Positions 26,546 to 33,920 are shown, counted from the first letter of the stretch. The stretch: DNA of 64,000 nucleotides from an uncultured Solirubrobacterales bacterium (GCA_963764275.1 CAVXRV010000002.1:158799-222798), one strand, 5' to 3'. The notes: generated from the letters alone by a model not told the origin. Program-made: numbers and translations.

Positions 26546-26595
26546 GTCGTCCTCCGGTGCGGCCCGCGGCGGCCGCGATCTGAACTAGACTGGCC

Positions 26596-26780
26596 GCGTC
26601 CATAACGGTCGGTGTTCAGGGAAGTCCGGTGTGAAGCCGGCGCGGTCCCGCCACTGTGACCGGGTGAGTTCGCTGCACGCGTAGCCGCCTCCGCCGTGAG
26701 AGCGGCCGCAGCCACTGGGAGCCCGACGGGCCCCGGGAAGGCGCGGCGGAAATACCCGTAAGCCAGGAGACCCGGCGTCG
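26596..26780 (+). promoter_or_regulatory. cobalamin (B12) riboswitch
   Basis: The conserved core reads AGGGAAGTCCGGTGTGAAGCCGGCGCGGTCCCGCCACTGT (26618-26657). It is followed by GCCACTGGGAG...CCGGGAAGGC and the B12 box AGCCAGGAGACCCGGC (26761-26776). It ends about 35 nt before ATG 26815, whose GGAAAGGG Shine-Dalgarno follows. Confidence 0.85.
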
Positions 26781-26814
26781 GCCCAGCTGAAAACCCTCGA
26801 GGAAAGGGTGGCTC

Positions 26815-27810
26815 ATGTCCACACACTCCCCGCGGCTGCGCCGGCTTCTGCCGTGCCTCGCAGCAGCGCTCCTGACGATGATGGCCGCGGCGTCGGCCGA
26901 GGCCTCCGAACACCGCGTCGGCGCCGACCTTCGCGTCGTCGACTCGCACGGCAAGACCCTCGTCGACCAGCGGCAATACACCGGCACGGCCCGGATCAAG
27001 ACCTCCCGCAAGGCGGACTGCTTCGGGCAGGGCACCGGCGGCTCCGGTGCCAGGGTCAAGGTGCCGGGGCCGACCGCGCTCGGCATCGTCGCCGATGCCT
27101 CCACCTACCAGCGGAAGCTGCGCCCCCTGCGGATCACCGATTCGTTCGACTTCGGGCTCGGCGTCTGCGGCTTCGGCCACGCCGTCGCGCCGTCGACGGG
27201 CTACTGGTACCTGAAGCAGAACCACGTCGGCTCGCAGACGGGCGGCGATCAGACGAAGGTGCATCGCGGCGATCAGATCCTCTGGTACCTGATCACCGAC
27301 TACAACGACCCCACGCCCGACGAGCTCGAGATCCGCGCGCCCGCGAAGGTCAAGCGCGGGCAGCGGATCCCCGTCAAGGTGACCGCCTACGACGACAGCG
27401 GCAAGCGGACCCCGGCTGCCGGCGCGAAGATCGCCGGCACGAACATCGTCACCGGCGCCGACGGCAAGGCCAGCGTGCCGATCCGGGGCGCCGAGACGCG
27501 CCTGCACGCCGTCCGTGACGGGGCCATTCCCTCGCCCGTCGTCAAGGTCTGCGAGAAGGGGGTCGGCGGAAGGTGCCCGAAGGGTCACGAGCTCAAGGTC
27601 CGGGGAACGGACGGCCGCGACCACATCCGCAGCAGCAAGCGACCGACCGTGATCGACGCCTTCCGCGGTCGCGACGTGATCAACGTCAAGCCCTCGCGGA
27701 GCTCGGCGCCCCCGATCGTCAAGTGCGGCCCGGGCAAGGACGTCGTCAAGGCCCGGCGCCACCAGAAGGTCGTCGCCCGCCGCAGCTGCGAGCGGATCAA
27801 GCGGCACTGA
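26815..27810 (+). CDS. secreted DUF4430-domain protein with Ig-like middle and basic Cys-containing C-terminal region
   Basis: Signal peptide LLPCLAAALLTMMAAASAEA. DUF4430-like segment GYWYLKQNHVGSQTGGDQTKVHRGDQILWYL. First ORF after the riboswitch. Confidence 0.7.
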   Translation: MSTHSPRLRRLLPCLAAALLTMMAAASAEASEHRVGADLRVVDSHGKTLVDQRQYTGTARIKTSRKADCFGQGTGGSGARVKVPGPTALGIVADASTYQRKLRPLRITDSFDFGLGVCGFGHAVAPSTGYWYLKQNHVGSQTGGDQTKVHRGDQILWYLITDYNDPTPDELEIRAPAKVKRGQRIPVKVTAYDDSGKRTPAAGAKIAGTNIVTGADGKASVPIRGAETRLHAVRDGAIPSPVVKVCEKGVGGRCPKGHELKVRGTDGRDHIRSSKRPTVIDAFRGRDVINVKPSRSSAPPIVKCGPGKDVVKARRHQKVVARRSCERIKRH

Positions 27811-27811
27811 C

Positions 27812-28213
27812 GTGACCGGCGCCCGCACACTCGCGGTCGCGGCGGCGGGCATGCTCGCCGCCGTGATCGCGGGTTGCGGGTTCGGCGCCGGGCCCAGCAG
27901 CGAGGGGACGGCGACCCTGCGCGTGACGCGCGACTTCGGCGACAAGCTTCTGGCCGAGGCCACCGACACCGACCCGCCCGCCTCCGAGACCGTGGCCCGG
28001 TTCCTCGACCGCGAGGCTGACATCAAGACGAGCTACGGCGGCAACTTCATCGACTCGATCGACGGGGTCGCGGGCAACGCGATCGTCTCCGGCCGCAGCT
28101 ACGACTGGTTCTTCTACGTGAACGGCTACTGGTCGCCGATCGGCGCCGGAGAGGCCCAAGTCCATCCCGGCGATGCGATCTGGTGGGACTACCGCGACTG
28201 GAGCAGCGCCTAG
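27812..28213 (+). CDS. DUF4430 lipoprotein (transcobalamin beta-domain-like fold)
   Basis: GTG 27812 is 1 nt after the upstream TGA. The lipobox is AAVIAGC. The canonical DUF4430 ending is DWFFYVNGYWSPIGAGEAQVHPGDAIWWDY. It terminates at an in-frame TAG (28211-28213). Confidence 0.8.
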   Translation: MTGARTLAVAAAGMLAAVIAGCGFGAGPSSEGTATLRVTRDFGDKLLAEATDTDPPASETVARFLDREADIKTSYGGNFIDSIDGVAGNAIVSGRSYDWFFYVNGYWSPIGAGEAQVHPGDAIWWDYRDWSSA

Positions 28214-28216
28214 CGC

Positions 28217-28798
28217 GTGCCGGCGGTGGTCGGCTCCTGGCCGGAGCCGTTCCGCAGCGGCTACGACGGCAAGCGCCGCCCGACCGAGCTCACCTGCATG
28301 AGCGGTCGCGACGACGCCTGCGCGGAAACGGAGAAAGCCCTGCGTGACGCGGGGGCCGATCTCTCGGTCGCCAAGGGCACGGTCCCGCGGGCCGATCCCG
28401 GCTCGGAGCTGCGCGTGCTGGTCGGCAGCTGGGCCGATGTCCGCTCCGATCGCACCGCGCGCGAGCTCGAGCAGGGGCCGGGGACGAGCGGCGTCTACGC
28501 CAAGCCGCGCGAATGCGACGGAGGCTGGGGGCTGGAGCTGCTCGGCGCCGACGGCGGCACCGAGGGCGAGGCCGCAGTCGCGGGTTGGGTTGCCGCGACG
28601 CAGCGCGGCGACGAGCAGCCCACATGGGTGGTCTCCGGCACGGACGCCGCCGAGGCGGCGGATGCGGCCGCGCTGCTCGGCGGGGACGGGCTGCGCGACC
28701 ACTACGCGGTGGCGACGGCCGCGGGCGCGGCGACCCCGCTGCCGGCCCAGGGACCCGTCGCGGGCGCATCCGCGGGATCCTGCGGGGGGAACGGATGA
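28217..28798 (+). CDS. hypothetical protein, same frame as the preceding DUF4430 ORF
   Basis: GTG 28217 is only one codon after TAG 28211-28213 and in the same frame. The 193-aa product has no recognisable family. Its stop overlaps the next start (ATGA 28795). Confidence 0.45.
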   Translation: MPAVVGSWPEPFRSGYDGKRRPTELTCMSGRDDACAETEKALRDAGADLSVAKGTVPRADPGSELRVLVGSWADVRSDRTARELEQGPGTSGVYAKPRECDGGWGLELLGADGGTEGEAAVAGWVAATQRGDEQPTWVVSGTDAAEAADAAALLGGDGLRDHYAVATAAGAATPLPAQGPVAGASAGSCGGNG

Positions 28799-29709
28799 GG
28801 GCGGCGCTCGCATACTCGCCGCGACCGGGACCGCTCGGCCGCGCCCGCCCGCTCGTCGCCGCCGTCTACCTGATGCCGCTGGCGGCGATCGCGTTCAGCT
28901 TCTCGAGCCCGCTCGTGCTGCTCGCCGCCGGTGCCGCGGCGCTGCTTGCAGCCGCCGCCTCGGGTGCCCTCCGGCCGGCGCTGGCGCCGCTCCGCTACGG
29001 GGTCGTGTTGGCCGCGACGGTCATCGCCGTCAACGCGCTGGTCACCGACCGCGGCGAGACGATCCTCTTCCGCGGTGGGCAGGTGCCGCTGCTCGGCCGC
29101 GTGGACGTCACGCTCGAGGCGCTCGCCGAGGGCGGGATCCTCGCCCTGAGGATCCTGGTCGCGCTCGCGATCTTCGCGGTCTGGTCGGCCTGCGTGGACC
29201 CCGATCGGATCCTGAAGGCGGTGCGCCCGTTCGCCGCCCGCTCGGCGATCACCGCGACGCTGATCTCGCGCCTGGTGCCGCTCGCGGCGGCGGACTCGAT
29301 GCGCCTGCAGGAGGCCGCCTCGCTGCGCGGGCCCGCGGCCGCGCCGGTCTCGCGCGGAGCCCTGGCGCGCCGGCTCGTCGCCGGCTCGCTCGACCGCTCG
29401 GTCGACGTCGCGGCGACGCTCGAGCTGCGCGGCTTCGGGCTGCCCGGCCGCCCGGCACGGGTCCGCTACCGACGCGTTCCGGGCGAGCTGACGATGGCGT
29501 TGGTCGGGGCCGCAACGGCCGCGGCGGCGATCGCGGCGGGGGGCGCGGGCGTGGGCGCGATCGACGTCTACCCGACGATCTCCGGCGGCCTCGAGCCGGG
29601 CACGGTGGCCTTCGCGGCCGCGCTGCCGCTGCTCGCGGCGCTGCCGTTCTGCTCGCGGCGCGAGCTGCGCCGGCTGCGGGCGGAGCGCGAGCGGGGGAGG
29701 GCGCGATGA
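28795..29709 (+). CDS. ecfT: energy-coupling factor transporter transmembrane (T) component, CbiQ/EcfT family
   Basis: ATG 28795 lies within track ORF 28513..29709. It is a multi-TM protein with the C-terminal coupling-helix region ARRLVAGSLDRSVDVAATLELRGF, typical of EcfT. Confidence 0.85.
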   Translation: MRAALAYSPRPGPLGRARPLVAAVYLMPLAAIAFSFSSPLVLLAAGAAALLAAAASGALRPALAPLRYGVVLAATVIAVNALVTDRGETILFRGGQVPLLGRVDVTLEALAEGGILALRILVALAIFAVWSACVDPDRILKAVRPFAARSAITATLISRLVPLAAADSMRLQEAASLRGPAAAPVSRGALARRLVAGSLDRSVDVAATLELRGFGLPGRPARVRYRRVPGELTMALVGAATAAAAIAAGGAGVGAIDVYPTISGGLEPGTVAFAAALPLLAALPFCSRRELRRLRAERERGRAR

Positions 29710-31340
29710 GGCCCCCGGTGCTGAGCTGCCGCGGGCTCGCCTACCGCTATCCGGGCGCCGCGGCGACCGCGCTCGGGCCGCTCGATTTGGAGCTGCCCGA
29801 GGGCGAGTTCGTCGTCCTCGCCGGTCGCTCGGGCTCGGGCAAGTCGACGCTGCTGCGCGCCGCCTGCGGGCTCGTGCCCCACTTCCACGGCGGCCGCTTC
29901 GAGGGCGAGGTCATCGTCGACGGCCGCAGCACCCGCGATGCGGGCCCCGCCGAGCTCGCCGTGAACGTCGGCTTCGTCGCGCAGGAGCCGGAGTCGCAGG
30001 TGGTGTCGACGACGGTCCGGGCCGAGCTCGAGCTGCCGCTCGAGCTGCGTGGCCGCGGGCCGGACGAGACCGCCCGGGCGGTCGAGGAGGTGGCGCTCGC
30101 GCTCGGCGTCGAGGGGCTGCTCGACCGCACCACGGACACGCTCTCCGGCGGCGAGCTGCAGCGGGTCGCGATCGGCGCCGCGCTCGTCACCCGGCCGCCG
30201 TTGCTGCTGCTCGACGAGCCGACATCGCAGCTCGACCCCGTCGCGGGCGATGAGCTGATCGGTCTGCTGCGGCGCCTCAACGAGGAGTGGGGGGTGACGA
30301 TCGTGCTCGGCGAGCACCGGCTCGAGCGCTGCCTGCCGGCGGCCGACCGGGTGATCGCGCTCGAGCGCGGCCTGATCGCCTACGACGGCGAACGAGCCGG
30401 CTTCGGAGCCTTCGCCACCGGCTCTGCGCCCTGGCTGGCAACGCCCGGGATGCAGCTGTTCGAGCTCGCCGGTCTCGCCGAGCGGCCGACCTCGGTCAAG
30501 CAGGCGCGGGCGTTGCTCGCGGGGCGTGAGGGGTCGGCCACGGCCGACCGTCCCCGGGGCGGCGGAGGCCGGCGGCACCCCCACGGAGGCCCCCGCGGCG
30601 CTGCTCACGCGCGATCTGCGCGTCGAGCTCGACGCGGGGACCGGGCCGCGCGAGGTCCTCGCCGGCGTCGAGATGCGCCTCGGGGCGGGAGAGGTCGTGG
30701 CCCTCGTCGGGCCCAACGGCGCCGGCAAGAGCACGTTGCTGCGTACCGCCGCGGGGCTGCTCGAGCCCGCGGGCGGCACGATCGAGGTGCCGCGCGGGTG
30801 CGCTCTCGTCGGCCAGCGTCCCGACGATTACTTCGTTCGCGAGCGGATCGACGAGGAGCTGCCCGGGCCCGAGGGTGCCCTGGCCCTCGCAGCCGTCGGC
30901 CTCGACGTGGCCCGGGAGCGAGACCCGCGGGACCTCTCCGGCGGCGAGCGCCAGCGGCTCGCCCTCGCGATCGCGATGGCCGGTCGCGGCGCCGGCGGGG
31001 AGCCACCCGGCCTCGTCTGCTTCGACGAGCCGACGCGGGGTCTGGATCGGGAGCGCAAGGCGAAGCTCGTCGCGTGGCTGCAGGGGCTGGCCGCGGCCGG
31101 CGCCGCGGTGCTCGTCGCCACGCACGACGTCGAGTTCGCCGCCGCGTTGAGCGAACGGGTGGTGCTGCTCGGCCGCGGCCGGGTGCTCGCCGACGGGCCC
31201 ACGGGGCGGATGCTCGCCGGGGGCTGGTACTTCGCGACCGAGGTGGCCCGGATCACCGGCGGGCGGGCGATCACGCCCGCTCGGGAGCCGCCCTCTTCGC
31301 CGGGCGCGAGCCGGCAGCAGAGGCCGGAGGCCGGCGATGA
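29706..31340 (+). CDS. ecfA: ECF transporter ATPase, two tandem ABC domains (EcfA/EcfA'), frame changes near 30530 and 31270
   Basis: Domain 1 (frame of ATG 29706) has GRSGSGKST, LSGGELQR and LLLLDEPTSQLD. Domain 2 (frame of ORF 30526..33273) has GPNGAGKST, LSGGERQR and VCFDEPTRGLD. A GTGA at 30526-30529 could alternatively separate two genes. The terminal TGA 31338-31340 overlaps the next ATG. Confidence 0.85.
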   Translation: MRPPVLSCRGLAYRYPGAAATALGPLDLELPEGEFVVLAGRSGSGKSTLLRAACGLVPHFHGGRFEGEVIVDGRSTRDAGPAELAVNVGFVAQEPESQVVSTTVRAELELPLELRGRGPDETARAVEEVALALGVEGLLDRTTDTLSGGELQRVAIGAALVTRPPLLLLDEPTSQLDPVAGDELIGLLRRLNEEWGVTIVLGEHRLERCLPAADRVIALERGLIAYDGERAGFGAFATGSAPWLATPGMQLFELAGLAERPTSVKQARALLAGREGSATADRPRGGGGRRHPHGGPRGAAHARSARRARRGDRAARGPRRRRDAPRGGRGRGPRRAQRRRQEHVAAYRRGAARARGRHDRGAARVRSRRPASRRLLRSRADRRGAARARGCPGPRSRRPRRGPGARPAGPLRRRAPAARPRDRDGRSRRRRGATRPRLLRRADAGSGSGAQGEARRVAAGAGRGRRRGARRHARRRVRRRVERTGGAARPRPGARRRAHGADARRGLVLRDRGGPDHRRAGDHARSGAALFAGREPAAEAGGRR

Positions 31341-33370
31341 GCTGGCAGCTCTCGATCTTCGCCTGCCTCGCGCTGGTTCTGCTCGCGGGCGGCGTCTGGT
31401 TCGAGCGCTCCCGTCCCTCGGCCCGGGTCGTCGCCGCCGTGGCCGCGCTGGCCGCGCTCGGCGTCGCCGGCCGGCTCGTGCTGGCCCCGATCCCGAACGT
31501 CGTCGCGACCACCGACGTGGTCCTCATCGCCGGCTACGCCCTCGGCGGTCCGCCCGGCTTCGCGGTCGGGGCGCTCTCGGCGCTGATCTCGAACTTCTGG
31601 CTCGGCCAGGGGCCGTGGACGCCGTGGCAGATGGCCGGCTGGGGGCTGGTCGGGATCGGGGGCGCCCTGCTCGCGTCTGTGAGCGGCCGGCGGCTCGGGC
31701 GGATGGGCCTGGCCGTCGCCGCCGCGATCGCGGGGCTTGCCTACGGCGCCCTGCTCGACCTCTCGACGATGGTCAGCTTCGGTGGCGAGCAGTCGCTGGA
31801 GCGGTATCTGGCGCTCTCGGCGCGCGGGATCCCGTTCAACGTCGCCCACGCGGTCGGCAACGCCGCGATCATGCTCGCCGCCGGCCCGGCGCTGGTCCGG
31901 ATCGTCGACCGCTACCGCGAGCGCTTCGACGTGGAGTGGGTGCCGCTCGCCGGCGGCACGGACGCCGCTCCCGCGCGTCCCGCCGCCGGCGGCGGGCTGG
32001 CGGTCGCGTTGATCGCGCTCGGCCTGGCGTTGCCCCTGTTCGGAGGCGCCCTCGGCGCCGGCCGCGCCGCGGCGGCGGACGCCGAGGCCTCGGCGAGCGG
32101 CGCCGCCGCCTGGCTGCGCTCGGCCCAGGGCTCGGACGGCGGTTGGGGCACCGGACCGGGCTACAGCACGAACCCGGGCATGACGGGCTGGGCGATGCTC
32201 GGGCTCGAGGCGGCCGGCGTCAACCCGCGCGACGTCTCCAGCGGCGGCAAGAACCCGGTCGACTTCCTGCGCGCGAACGCCGGCAAGCTGCGCTCCACCG
32301 GCGATCTCGAGCGCACGATCCTGGCCCTGCACGGAGCCGGAGTGAGGGCCGACCGCTTCGCCGGCCACGACCTGCCGGCGCAGTTGCGGAAGCGGCAGTC
32401 CCACAACGGCTCCTACGAGAAGCAGGTCAACCTCACCGCCTTCGCGATCCTCGCCCGCGTCGCTGCAGGGGAGAGTCACGGCGCGCTCGAGCGTCCGGCT
32501 CGCTGGCTCCGCGACGTGCAGCGCTCCGACGGCGGCTGGGCCTCGACCGCGGGCGGCGCGAGCGAGCCCGACAGCACGGGCGCGGCGCTGCAGGCGCTCG
32601 CCCTGCTCGGCGCCGATGGGCCCGTCGCCGACGGCGTCCACTGGCTGCGGCGGAGCCAGAACCGGGACGGCGGCTGGGCGCTGGTCAAAGGGTCGGGCTC
32701 GAACGCGCAGTCGACCGCGTGGGCGGTCCAGGGGCTGATCGCCGCCGGGGTCGATCCCGATCGAGTCGCGACCCACGGACACAGCGGGCTCGACTACCTG
32801 CGGGCGCGCAAGCGCGGCGACGGCCACTACGCCTACTCGAAGAGCAGCGACCAGACCCCCGTCTGGGTAACCGCGCAGGCGCTTACGGCGATCGCCCGCA
32901 AGCCGTTCCCGATCGCCGCGGTCCCGCGCAAGCGGGGCGGTGGCGGGAACCACGGGGGCGGCGGCGGCGGTGGCCACGGAAGTGGCTCGGGCGGGTCCGG
33001 CTCGGGGTCGGGCTCGAGCGGGAGCGGAACGAGCGCCTCCGGACCGAGCTCGAGCGCGAACGCCAGCCCTGCCTCCAGCGGCACGGGCGGCGGCGGGGGC
33101 AACGGAAAGCAATCCTCGCGGGCCTCGCACCGCGCCCACGGTGGGTCGCACCCGGACCGCGCCACCGGCGCGAGCAAGCGCAGGGCGAACGCCGTCAAGG
33201 CGAAGCCGGGCGCGCTCGCGGCCTACGTCCCGGCTGCGGCGCCGGACGGCGCCGGGGGCAGCGCGGGCGGTGACTCCCTGCCCGCGACCGCCGTCTGGCT
33301 CGCGGGGCTCGGCGTGCTTGCCGGGCTGCTCGCGGGCGGCTTCCTTCTGTATCGACGCCGGCTCCCTTGA
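31337..33370 (+). CDS. fusion protein: ECF S-component-like 6-TM domain + extracytoplasmic prenyltransferase/squalene-cyclase-like alpha/alpha-toroid + Gly/Ser-rich linker + C-terminal anchor
   Basis: Intact 677-aa ORF. The N-terminal ~195 aa are polytopic (GPWTPWQMAGWGLVGIG). The middle carries repeated toroid motifs QGSDGGWG, QRSDGGWA, QNRDGGWA, KRGDGHY. This is followed by GGGNHGGGGGGGHGSGSGGSGSGSGSSGSG and the tail LPATAVWLAGLGVLAGLLAGGFLLYRRRLP. Confidence 0.75.
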   Translation: MSWQLSIFACLALVLLAGGVWFERSRPSARVVAAVAALAALGVAGRLVLAPIPNVVATTDVVLIAGYALGGPPGFAVGALSALISNFWLGQGPWTPWQMAGWGLVGIGGALLASVSGRRLGRMGLAVAAAIAGLAYGALLDLSTMVSFGGEQSLERYLALSARGIPFNVAHAVGNAAIMLAAGPALVRIVDRYRERFDVEWVPLAGGTDAAPARPAAGGGLAVALIALGLALPLFGGALGAGRAAAADAEASASGAAAWLRSAQGSDGGWGTGPGYSTNPGMTGWAMLGLEAAGVNPRDVSSGGKNPVDFLRANAGKLRSTGDLERTILALHGAGVRADRFAGHDLPAQLRKRQSHNGSYEKQVNLTAFAILARVAAGESHGALERPARWLRDVQRSDGGWASTAGGASEPDSTGAALQALALLGADGPVADGVHWLRRSQNRDGGWALVKGSGSNAQSTAWAVQGLIAAGVDPDRVATHGHSGLDYLRARKRGDGHYAYSKSSDQTPVWVTAQALTAIARKPFPIAAVPRKRGGGGNHGGGGGGGHGSGSGGSGSGSGSSGSGTSASGPSSSANASPASSGTGGGGGNGKQSSRASHRAHGGSHPDRATGASKRRANAVKAKPGALAAYVPAAAPDGAGGSAGGDSLPATAVWLAGLGVLAGLLAGGFLLYRRRLP

Positions 33371-33407: not shown

Positions 33408-33920
33408 ATGGACGTCGAGGAAGCGATCCGCACCCGCCGCACGCACAAGGCATACCGGCCCGAGCCCGTGCCGGCCGAGACCGTCGCCGAGCTGCTCGAG
33501 CTGGCCCGGTGGGCGCCGAACCATCACCTGACCAACCCGTGGCGCTTCCGGGTCGTCGGGCCCGCCGCGCTCGCGCGACTGAAGGAGGCGGCGGGGCCGG
33601 AGGCGGCACCGAAGCTCGACCGCGCGCCGACGCTCATCGCCGCCTCCGCGCTCGCCGACCCCGATGATCCCGTCGCCGCGACCGAGGATCTGCACGCCTC
33701 CGCCTGCGCCGTCTACGCGGTCCTGCTCGCCGCCCACGGGCGCGGTCTCGCCGCTTACTGGCGCACCCCGGGGGTGCTTCGGGAAGCGGCCGGCCGCGAG
33801 GCGCTCGGCATCGGCGCGGGGGAGACGGTGCTCGGGCTGATCTATCTCGGCGAGCCGGTGCAGGAGCAGCGCCGGCCCGAGCGCGCGGATCCATCGGACT
33901 ACGTGACGTGGCTCGACTGA
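33408..33920 (+). CDS. nitroreductase family protein
   Basis: ATG 33408 lies within track ORF 32940..33920. The 170-aa product has RRTHKAYRPEPVP, LELARWAPNHHLTNPWRF and GLAAYWRT, typical of the nitroreductase fold. Confidence 0.8.
   Translation: MDVEEAIRTRRTHKAYRPEPVPAETVAELLELARWAPNHHLTNPWRFRVVGPAALARLKEAAGPEAAPKLDRAPTLIAASALADPDDPVAATEDLHASACAVYAVLLAAHGRGLAAYWRTPGVLREAAGREALGIGAGETVLGLIYLGEPVQEQRRPERADPSDYVTWLD

Follow-up and report, generated by a model that had tools for sequence, protein, structure and literature searches.

The subject of this study is a gene at 31337..33370 of a window of 64,000 nucleotides from an uncultured Solirubrobacterales bacterium (GCA_963764275.1, CAVXRV010000002.1:158799-222798). 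All positions are counted from the first nucleotide of this window, and all features of the window mentioned below lie on its plus strand. The gene is an intact open reading frame (ORF) of 677 aa, whose ATG shares an ATGA overlap with the stop codon of the upstream gene, and it represents the last transporter gene of an operon led by a cobalamin riboswitch. Its product combines a membrane domain resembling the substrate-capture (S) component of energy-coupling factor (ECF) transporters with an alpha/alpha toroid, a long linker and a hydrophobic tail. Judged by its sequence, the fusion protein is probably the S subunit of a corrinoid ECF importer of the CbrT type, which is joined to a surface toroid.

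The architecture of the fusion protein was analyzed with an AlphaFold2 (AF2) model built on 79 homologues, which reached a mean predicted local distance difference test score (pLDDT) of 78. The first part, 31337..31927 (residues 1-197), consists of an N-terminal transmembrane (TM) helix, TM0 (residues 2-24), and the CbrT-family S-component core (residues 27-197 in the model), for which a solved homologue exists (PDB 6FNP_A, see below). It is followed at 31928..32065 (residues 198-243) by a poorly conserved segment comprising a cytoplasmic linker and an export helix, TM7, which appears in the model as a low-confidence helix at residues 219-235. The stretch 32081..32926 (residues 249-530) encodes the toroid, which is predicted to be extracytoplasmic, bears four QW-type repeats and shows 12 helices at residues 249-519 with pLDDT values above 95. 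Then follows a Gly/Ser/Ala-rich linker at 32927..33271 (residues 531-645), which is disordered with pLDDT values below 50 (residues 531-649 in the model); its first 110 residues (531-640) include 34 Gly and 21 Ser, and its column conservation is 0.30. The protein ends with a C-terminal anchor at 33272..33370, composed of LPATA, the helix TM8, YRRRLP and the stop codon, in which the last helix (residues 651-674) is again modelled with confidence (pLDDT 83-91). All features quoted for this ORF in a preliminary description, which had been made from the sequence alone, were recovered, i.e. two S-domain motifs (residues 92-108 and 167-183), the QxxDGG-type repeats, the low-complexity linker and the LPATA-helix-RRRLP tail. 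That description had counted about six N-terminal TM helices; the six-helix S-component core is indeed present, but the additional TM0 brings the number of helices preceding the export helix to seven, and the eighth hydrophobic helix between S-domain and toroid, TM7 (approximately residues 219-243), had not been mentioned.

Regarding the S-domain, a search of the PDB with this domain alone returned one solved chain, 6FNP_A (182 aa), with an E-value of 2.6e-11, in which residues 33-196 align with residues 13-175 of the solved protein. The same chain was found with the family profile at E 3.1e-15, and the alignment blocks IPNV..TD, ISN..LG.G.WT and F..HA.GN are common to both proteins. The generic ECF S-component model of Pfam covered residues 29-175 with a sub-threshold E-value of 2.6e-4, and neither the Pfam nor the NCBIfam scans gave a match to the CbiM or NikM families. 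Structure 6FNP represents ECF-CbrT of Lactobacillus delbrueckii, for which the transport of cobalamin and cobinamide was demonstrated (PMC5997447). These alignments assign the N-terminal domain to the CbrT family of ECF S-components, which is specific for B12; hence the early impression of an S-component-like domain was correct and can be narrowed to a particular family. The S-domain is also the most conserved part of the protein, with a column identity of 0.86. In size, however, the protein differs from a typical S-component, which is a stand-alone protein of approximately 180-230 aa; it has 677 aa with three further TM helices and an outer domain of 280 aa.

The second folded domain was proposed in the preliminary description to be a toroid of the prenyltransferase/squalene-cyclase type, which is confirmed by Pfam domains, the AF2 model and Foldseek. 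The four QxxDGG[W]-type repeats start at residues 264, 395, 441 and 492, and Pfam detects SQHop_cyclase_C/N and Prenyltrans over approximately residues 250-500. The 12-helix toroid fold of the AF2 model found its nearest structures by Foldseek among single-domain class II terpene cyclases and beta subunits of prenyltransferases. The column identity of the toroid amounts to 0.70, with many invariant polar and aromatic residues. A DxDD motif is missing from the entire protein and cysteine residues are missing from the toroid region, which makes a catalytic role unlikely. A weak Pfam match to a thioester (TED) domain was dismissed as well, because the toroid has no cysteine.

The toroid was assumed to be extracellular, and this view is strengthened as a prediction. 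In all 79 homologues, a hydrophobic 17-mer (Kyte-Doolittle value of at least 1.86) exists between S-domain and toroid; the sequence conservation of the linker/TM7 region (residues 198-243) is only 0.33-0.40. TM7 is flanked by approximately 6 Lys/Arg residues on the preceding, cytoplasmic side versus approximately 2 behind it, the predicted cytoplasmic loops bear positive charges, and the C-terminus of the protein includes RRR. It is known from solved structures, including 6FNP, that both termini of S-components are located in the cytoplasm. Based on TM7, the charge bias and this N-in/C-in topology, the toroid and the linker are predicted to be outside the cell. In the proposed topology, the N-terminus would be outside and TM0 would be followed by the six S-component helices ending in the cytoplasm, TM7 would then cross outward to place the toroid on the outer face beside the mouth of the S-domain, and TM8 would cross back to leave the RRR end inside. 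TM7 corresponds to the N-terminal signal anchor of a stand-alone toroid protein in a related lineage with split genes. Since this split protein has its own signal anchor, TM7 can be regarded as a remnant of the signal anchor that the toroid once had as a separate protein.

The operon leader contains a cobalamin riboswitch aptamer (RF00174) at 26577..26793, which matches the full model (1-189) with 62.2 bits compared to a gathering score of 31.5 and ends 21 nt before the first gene. It is the only RF00174 match in the whole 3.87-Mb genome, and the riboswitch was also found upstream of the operon in all seven relatives tested. The first gene, 26815..27810, encodes a secreted protein of 331 aa with a signal-peptide-like N-terminus, a degenerate DUF4430/SLBB-like part and a C-terminal region of GxxGxDxI-type repeats, and it was found in all 70 relatives. 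Its match to DUF4430 is weak (E 0.0039); in a comparison by hhalign with the profile of the lipoprotein encoded next to it, an E-value of 4e-5 and a probability of 69% were obtained over the DUF4430 C-terminal motif. The GxxGxDxI repeats of the secreted protein recall calcium-binding beta-roll repeats, and it has several invariant cysteine residues. The lipoprotein gene is interrupted in the window. Its N-terminal part at 27812..28213 contains the DUF4430 domain (Pfam E 2.8e-13) and a lipobox (IAGC) and is cut by a TAG at 28211-28213, while the C-terminal alpha/beta part at 28217..28798 forms a separate ORF in the window only, without an own signal peptide and without a Pfam match. The fold of an intact lipoprotein orthologue was predicted with a pLDDT of 87, and its N-terminal domain resembles the beta domains of transcobalamin, intrinsic factor and haptocorrin (Foldseek probability 1.00; matches 5no0, 5np4, 2bb6, 2pmv and 4kki; template modelling score of approximately 0.65 to the isolated beta domain in 5no0/5np4). 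The likeness of the DUF4430 partner to the transcobalamin beta domain is thereby shown for the modelled structure; at the sequence level, hhalign of the DUF4430 protein with human transcobalamin gave nothing significant, and single-sequence PDB searches with the DUF4430 ORF and the T protein gave no matches.

The two following genes encode the remaining ECF subunits. An EcfT/CbiQ-type T component is located at 28795..29709, an assignment made through its orthologues, of which 32 out of 34 match CbiQ (PF02361; best E 3.4e-12); the sole PDB match of the orthologue profile was EcfT (5d3m_D, with the same sequence as in 6fnp) at E 0.14. The window copy itself did not match the Pfam CbiQ model even at E-values up to 10, with orthologues being 50-69% identical, so it is either unusually divergent or affected by sequence errors. 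A fused EcfA-EcfA' double ATPase with two frame changes spans 29706..31340, and its halves match ABC_tran with E-values of 1e-26 and 7e-19. The gene order, i.e. secreted protein, lipoprotein, T component, fused A-A' ATPase and S-toroid fusion, is identical in all 70 relatives for which enough upstream DNA is available. Behind the fusion gene, at a distance of 38 nt, a gene for a nitroreductase-family protein of 170 aa is found at 33408..33920 (Pfam Nitroreductase, E 2.7e-21). The closest NCBIfam model is the YdjA-like PRK10828, which it matches below the cut-off, and an identity as BluB was not supported (40 bits compared to a cut-off of 150). The nitroreductase gene is situated directly downstream in 60 of 78 loci of relatives, and the sole terminator-like site ahead of it (33323-33342) falls within coding sequence. 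It may be the last gene of the operon, and a role in the processing of incoming corrinoids would be a guess.

It must be mentioned that the window copy of the operon contains lesions in two of the neighbouring genes. At the position of the in-frame TAG (28211-28213), the relatives have a Tyr or Met codon, and in all 70 of them a single lipoprotein of approximately 320 aa is encoded across both ORFs. The TAG is consequently a nonsense change or a base error and does not separate two genes; programmed read-through was ruled out, since a sense codon is present in all 70 relatives. The ATPase gene leaves its frame at approximately 30518-30547 and returns at approximately 31270-31285; runs of G/C occur at the first break, and one base is apparently missing at the second. 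In each of three relatives (loci L008, L012 and L021), the ATPase is encoded by one uninterrupted ORF of at least 549 aa, and the window ATPase matches the ORF of one intact relative in two frames. The assembly consists of 12 contigs with a marker completeness of 74%, which together with the G/C runs at the first break makes an assembly error the more likely cause; TAG and both frameshifts are thus probably assembly errors.

Regarding its distribution, the fusion is widespread. A search of protein databases gave more than 6000 hits of approximately 620-680 aa with this architecture. The best 120 hits listed have 585-697 aa and the same toroid Pfam domains, many of them originate from metagenome-assembled genomes of Solirubrobacterales, and JGI often labels such homologues as 'ECF substrate-specific component'. 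In a scan with one genome per species, 532 loci were found to encode a relative, so that the fusion occurs in more than 530 species, among them hundreds of soil actinobacteria. The 78 loci that were fetched all gave a single tblastn match from residue 1 to at least residue 525, i.e. across the domain junction. When the S-domain was used alone, 1473 cluster representatives were found at E-values up to 1e-10; the closest homologues are mostly N-terminal parts of proteins of 450-760 aa, and some are stand-alone proteins of approximately 200-260 aa. Within this order, the fused form is the rule. Hence, the early notion that it is unusual needs to be qualified, also because the type of system had already been predicted.

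Separate genes were searched for among related genomes and do exist. In another family of the same order (f70), the S-domain is solely encoded by a stand-alone gene in 11 out of 11 genomes, where it ends the same type of riboswitch operon (DUF4430 lipoprotein, T, A-A', S). In one of these genomes, the toroid is a separate protein of 513 aa, in which a signal anchor at the N-terminus and a TM helix at the C-terminus are accompanied by a long linker; it is encoded in a second operon (L102:293-4145), which consists of an own cobalamin riboswitch and the genes for a secreted protein of 527 aa, the toroid and a MotA/ExbB-family protein. The presence of the latter, a proton-channel-type protein (Pfam E 1.9e-9), in a B12 capture operon is recorded here as a separate observation. 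Other actinobacteria have an adenosylcobalamin (AdoCbl) riboswitch followed by genes for a toroid (358 aa), a DUF4430 protein with TM anchor (283 aa), T, A-A' and S, whereas in Streptomyces-like genomes a cobalamin riboswitch precedes the gene for an SCO2321-family toroid, which is followed by the ATPase genes and the CbrT-like S gene. The existence of related genomes with split genes indicates that the fusion is of evolutionary origin and not an assembly artefact. Furthermore, the occurrence of fused and split forms is good gene-fusion (Rosetta-stone) evidence for a functional partnership between toroid and S-component.

The genomic background is consistent with a need for B12 uptake. The genome encodes at least four proteins with B12-binding domains, and neither CbiC nor CobS was found in it (completeness of 74% by markers), so that the organism probably depends on imported B12. 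This suggests that the host is a B12 auxotroph, in which the importer represents the only riboswitch-controlled locus.

Taken together, the ORF is best explained as the likely S subunit of an ECF-type importer dedicated to corrinoids and repressed by B12, in which the S-component was fused to a formerly separate surface protein. The ancestral surface protein would have consisted of a signal-anchor helix, the alpha/alpha toroid, a flexible stalk and a C-terminal anchor. Under B12 scarcity, the riboswitch would allow expression of the operon, and the toroid could cooperate with the lipoprotein and the secreted protein, whose DUF4430 parts are transcobalamin-beta-like, to capture corrinoids on the surface of the cell, in a manner comparable to the two domains of transcobalamin sandwiching B12. 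The corrinoid would then pass to the adjacent CbrT-like pocket, and EcfT with the fused EcfA-A' ATPase would drive its translocation as in ECF-CbrT. A substrate hand-off within one polypeptide, as already suggested in the preliminary description, is a reasonable inference from this arrangement. The gene-fusion evidence also indicates that B12 scavenging is a joint task of toroids, DUF4430 proteins and importers of the CbrT type.

Nevertheless, several observations weigh against this explanation. No specific relation of the toroid to the alpha domain of transcobalamin was detected: hhalign with human transcobalamin (a query identical to PDB 7qbf_A) gave a probability of 0.3%, the profile search of the PDB returned no transcobalamin at E-values up to 1, and among the 50 matches listed by Foldseek there were terpene cyclases and prenyltransferases but no transcobalamin. 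Hence, the analogy between the toroid and transcobalamin would be one of fold class and gene context. The topology was derived from homology and charge, and the placement of the toroid relative to the S-domain is uncertain in the AF2 model (predicted template modelling score, pTM, 0.56; TM7 of low confidence). A homologous system of Lactobacillus sakei was reported to take up heme (bioRxiv 10.1101/864751). Finally, if the TAG and the frameshifts were real, this copy of the operon would be inactive.

Regarding the nature of the ORF, two alternatives have to be considered. The preliminary description had raised the possibility that the assembly, being prone to indels, created the fusion artificially, which relatives with a stop codon between the domains would reveal. 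The neighbouring genes in the window do have a stop codon and frameshifts, but a single reading frame spans the junction in each of the 78 loci, which were fetched from independent assemblies, as well as in thousands of proteins in databases, which rules out this explanation and leaves it a practically negligible probability. The second alternative concerns the tail, which had been compared with an LPXTG-type sortase signal and which, if cleaved, would leave the outer part covalently attached to peptidoglycan. In its overall layout the tail indeed resembles a sorting signal, it shows a weak, sub-threshold match to a GVDTG C-terminal sorting-domain model (E 0.0011), and 43 out of 61 genomes of the order encode a sortase. 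However, among 120 homologues LPxTG occurs in 1, LAxTG in 2 and LPxT in 28, position 5 being mostly Pro, and 26 of the 32 fusion-bearing genomes with a sortase have tails without any PxT. The conservation is higher for TM8 (0.63) and the basic end (0.74) than for the 'motif', where it is only 0.33. TM8 is variable across the order, and several proteins of one family (f2) stop directly after the toroid, without linker or TM8. The window's own genome, at its completeness of 74%, yielded no sortase and, among its other proteins, only one weak look-alike of the tail, and the LPXTG-anchor models in NCBIfam did not match the fusion protein. The sortase signal was therefore rejected and is very improbable; the tail fits a plain positive-inside membrane anchor that is specific to a subclade.

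Three further alternatives concern the function. The corrinoid transporter could be retained with a toroid that does not bind ligand and serves as docking platform or spacer for the DUF4430 proteins or as an envelope tether. Such a role would be compatible with the missing similarity to the transcobalamin alpha domain, the long disordered stalk with its second anchor and the fact that L. delbrueckii CbrT alone binds B12 with high affinity (PMC5997447), but we regard it as unlikely, given that the toroid is well conserved with its invariant polar and aromatic residues, that it retains an own B12 riboswitch in split lineages, and that the transcobalamin toroid supplies half of the binding site (PMC1796856). 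A substrate other than corrinoids, i.e. another tetrapyrrole such as heme, or cobalt ions, seems quite improbable. Deletion and complementation of L. sakei lsa1836-1840 altered heme uptake (bioRxiv 10.1101/864751), which speaks for such a substrate; on the other hand, the S-domain matches CbrT and not CbiM or NikM, and a cobalamin riboswitch precedes the operon in every relative tested. As to cobalt, B12 riboswitches generally also govern cobalt importers such as CbiMNQO, which would agree with this alternative, yet the genes for the synthesis of the corrin ring and the nucleotide loop appear to be absent, so that imported cobalt would hardly help the cell to produce B12. The toroid could also be an enzyme, a class II terpene cyclase or a prenyltransferase acting on membrane isoprenoids, as its best Pfam, PDB and Foldseek matches are to squalene-hopene cyclase-type domains. 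This is extremely improbable and was ruled out, because there is neither a DxDD motif nor a cysteine in the toroid that could serve as prenyltransferase zinc ligand; the predicted extracytoplasmic site and the context of B12 riboswitch and ECF genes also argue against an enzyme.

If the S subunit of a B12-repressed corrinoid importer is accepted as the preferred interpretation, what is new is the covalent fusion of S-component and toroid, a variant of a system type that was predicted in 2007 and studied in its split form in L. sakei. Literature searches (DUF4430 with ECF and cobalamin; SCO2321; riboswitch with ECF and prenyltransferase) returned no report of an S-toroid fusion, and the published papers found so far do not contain a biochemical test of the idea of such a system for B12. 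ECF transporters are generally presented as importers that operate without an extracytoplasmic binding protein. We tentatively put forward, without leaning strongly either way, that an entire order possesses an ECF importer in which an extracytoplasmic domain of 30 kDa is permanently tethered to the S-component, whose pocket would receive the corrinoid by intramolecular hand-off from a transcobalamin-like sandwich formed with the DUF4430 lipoprotein. If true, the S-component could neither leave the complex nor topple freely, and the family would be a natural test case for the toppling and dissociation models of ECF transport as well as for the way in which bacteria attain transcobalamin-like affinity at their surface. 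Moreover, a likely function is given to a large group of proteins of soil actinobacteria that are labelled 'prenyltransferase/squalene oxidase repeat' in databases, and these abundant Solirubrobacterales appear to be B12 auxotrophs that rely on producers. The gain is nevertheless incremental, because the type of system, the link to CbrT and the fusion are already visible in databases.

Among the known systems, ECF-CbrT (PDB 6FNP; Santos, Rempel et al. 2018, PMC5997447) is the closest for the transporter part, as the S-domain is homologous over almost the entire chain and both systems share EcfT/CbiQ, two ABC ATPase domains and the link to B12. However, CbrT is a stand-alone protein of 182 aa that uses a general ECF module in common with others and has no extracytoplasmic partner domain, whereas the window system possesses an additional helix at the N-terminus, a fused A-A' gene of its own in the operon, a riboswitch and the attached toroid with two extra TM helices. 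The surface part resembles bacterial systems described by Burroughs et al. (2007, PMC1796856), namely SLBB (DUF4430) surface proteins of the transcobalamin type that frequently carry an alpha/alpha toroid or have one as gene neighbour, in operons with CbiO and CbiQ. The organisms do not synthesize B12, and B12 scavenging was predicted. Common to both are the SLBB/DUF4430 proteins, often as two paralogues, the toroid and the ECF-type T and A genes; in that work the toroid is fused to SLBB or stands alone, and a fusion with S did not appear in the passages searched, unlike the window protein with its toroid on a membrane S-component. The third related system, Lsa1836-1840 of L. sakei (bioRxiv 10.1101/864751), includes all corresponding parts, i.e. 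S, fused A-A', T, a transcobalamin-beta-like protein and an alpha-like toroid, and its authors proposed extracellular capture followed by hand-off to the S-component. It differs in that all parts are separate, the reported substrate is heme and the binding evidence is limited to docking; a text-term search of that paper gave no mention of CbrT.

Similarities also exist to animal transcobalamin, intrinsic factor and haptocorrin, which likewise combine an alpha6/alpha6 toroid with a beta-grasp domain; in the window system, however, the halves are located on different polypeptides, the toroid is membrane-tethered and no sequence-level similarity to transcobalamin was detected for either half. The SCO2321 family of Streptomyces membrane proteins (NCBIfam NF053823) comprises a related toroid, whose gene is the first one behind a cobalamin riboswitch and shares its operon with A-A' ATPases and an S gene of the CbrT type. 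The window protein matches this model only partially, with 101.5 bits compared to a cut-off of 300, and true members were found in one large-genome family only (8 out of 8 genomes); furthermore, the Streptomyces-like toroid remains a separate protein at the start of its operon. Generally, the covalent tethering of a binding domain is known from type I ABC importers such as GlnPQ and OpuA, in which a substrate-binding domain is fused to the permease. The fusion protein resembles them in its covalently tethered extracytoplasmic candidate binding domain, whereas transporter class, fold and mechanism are different.

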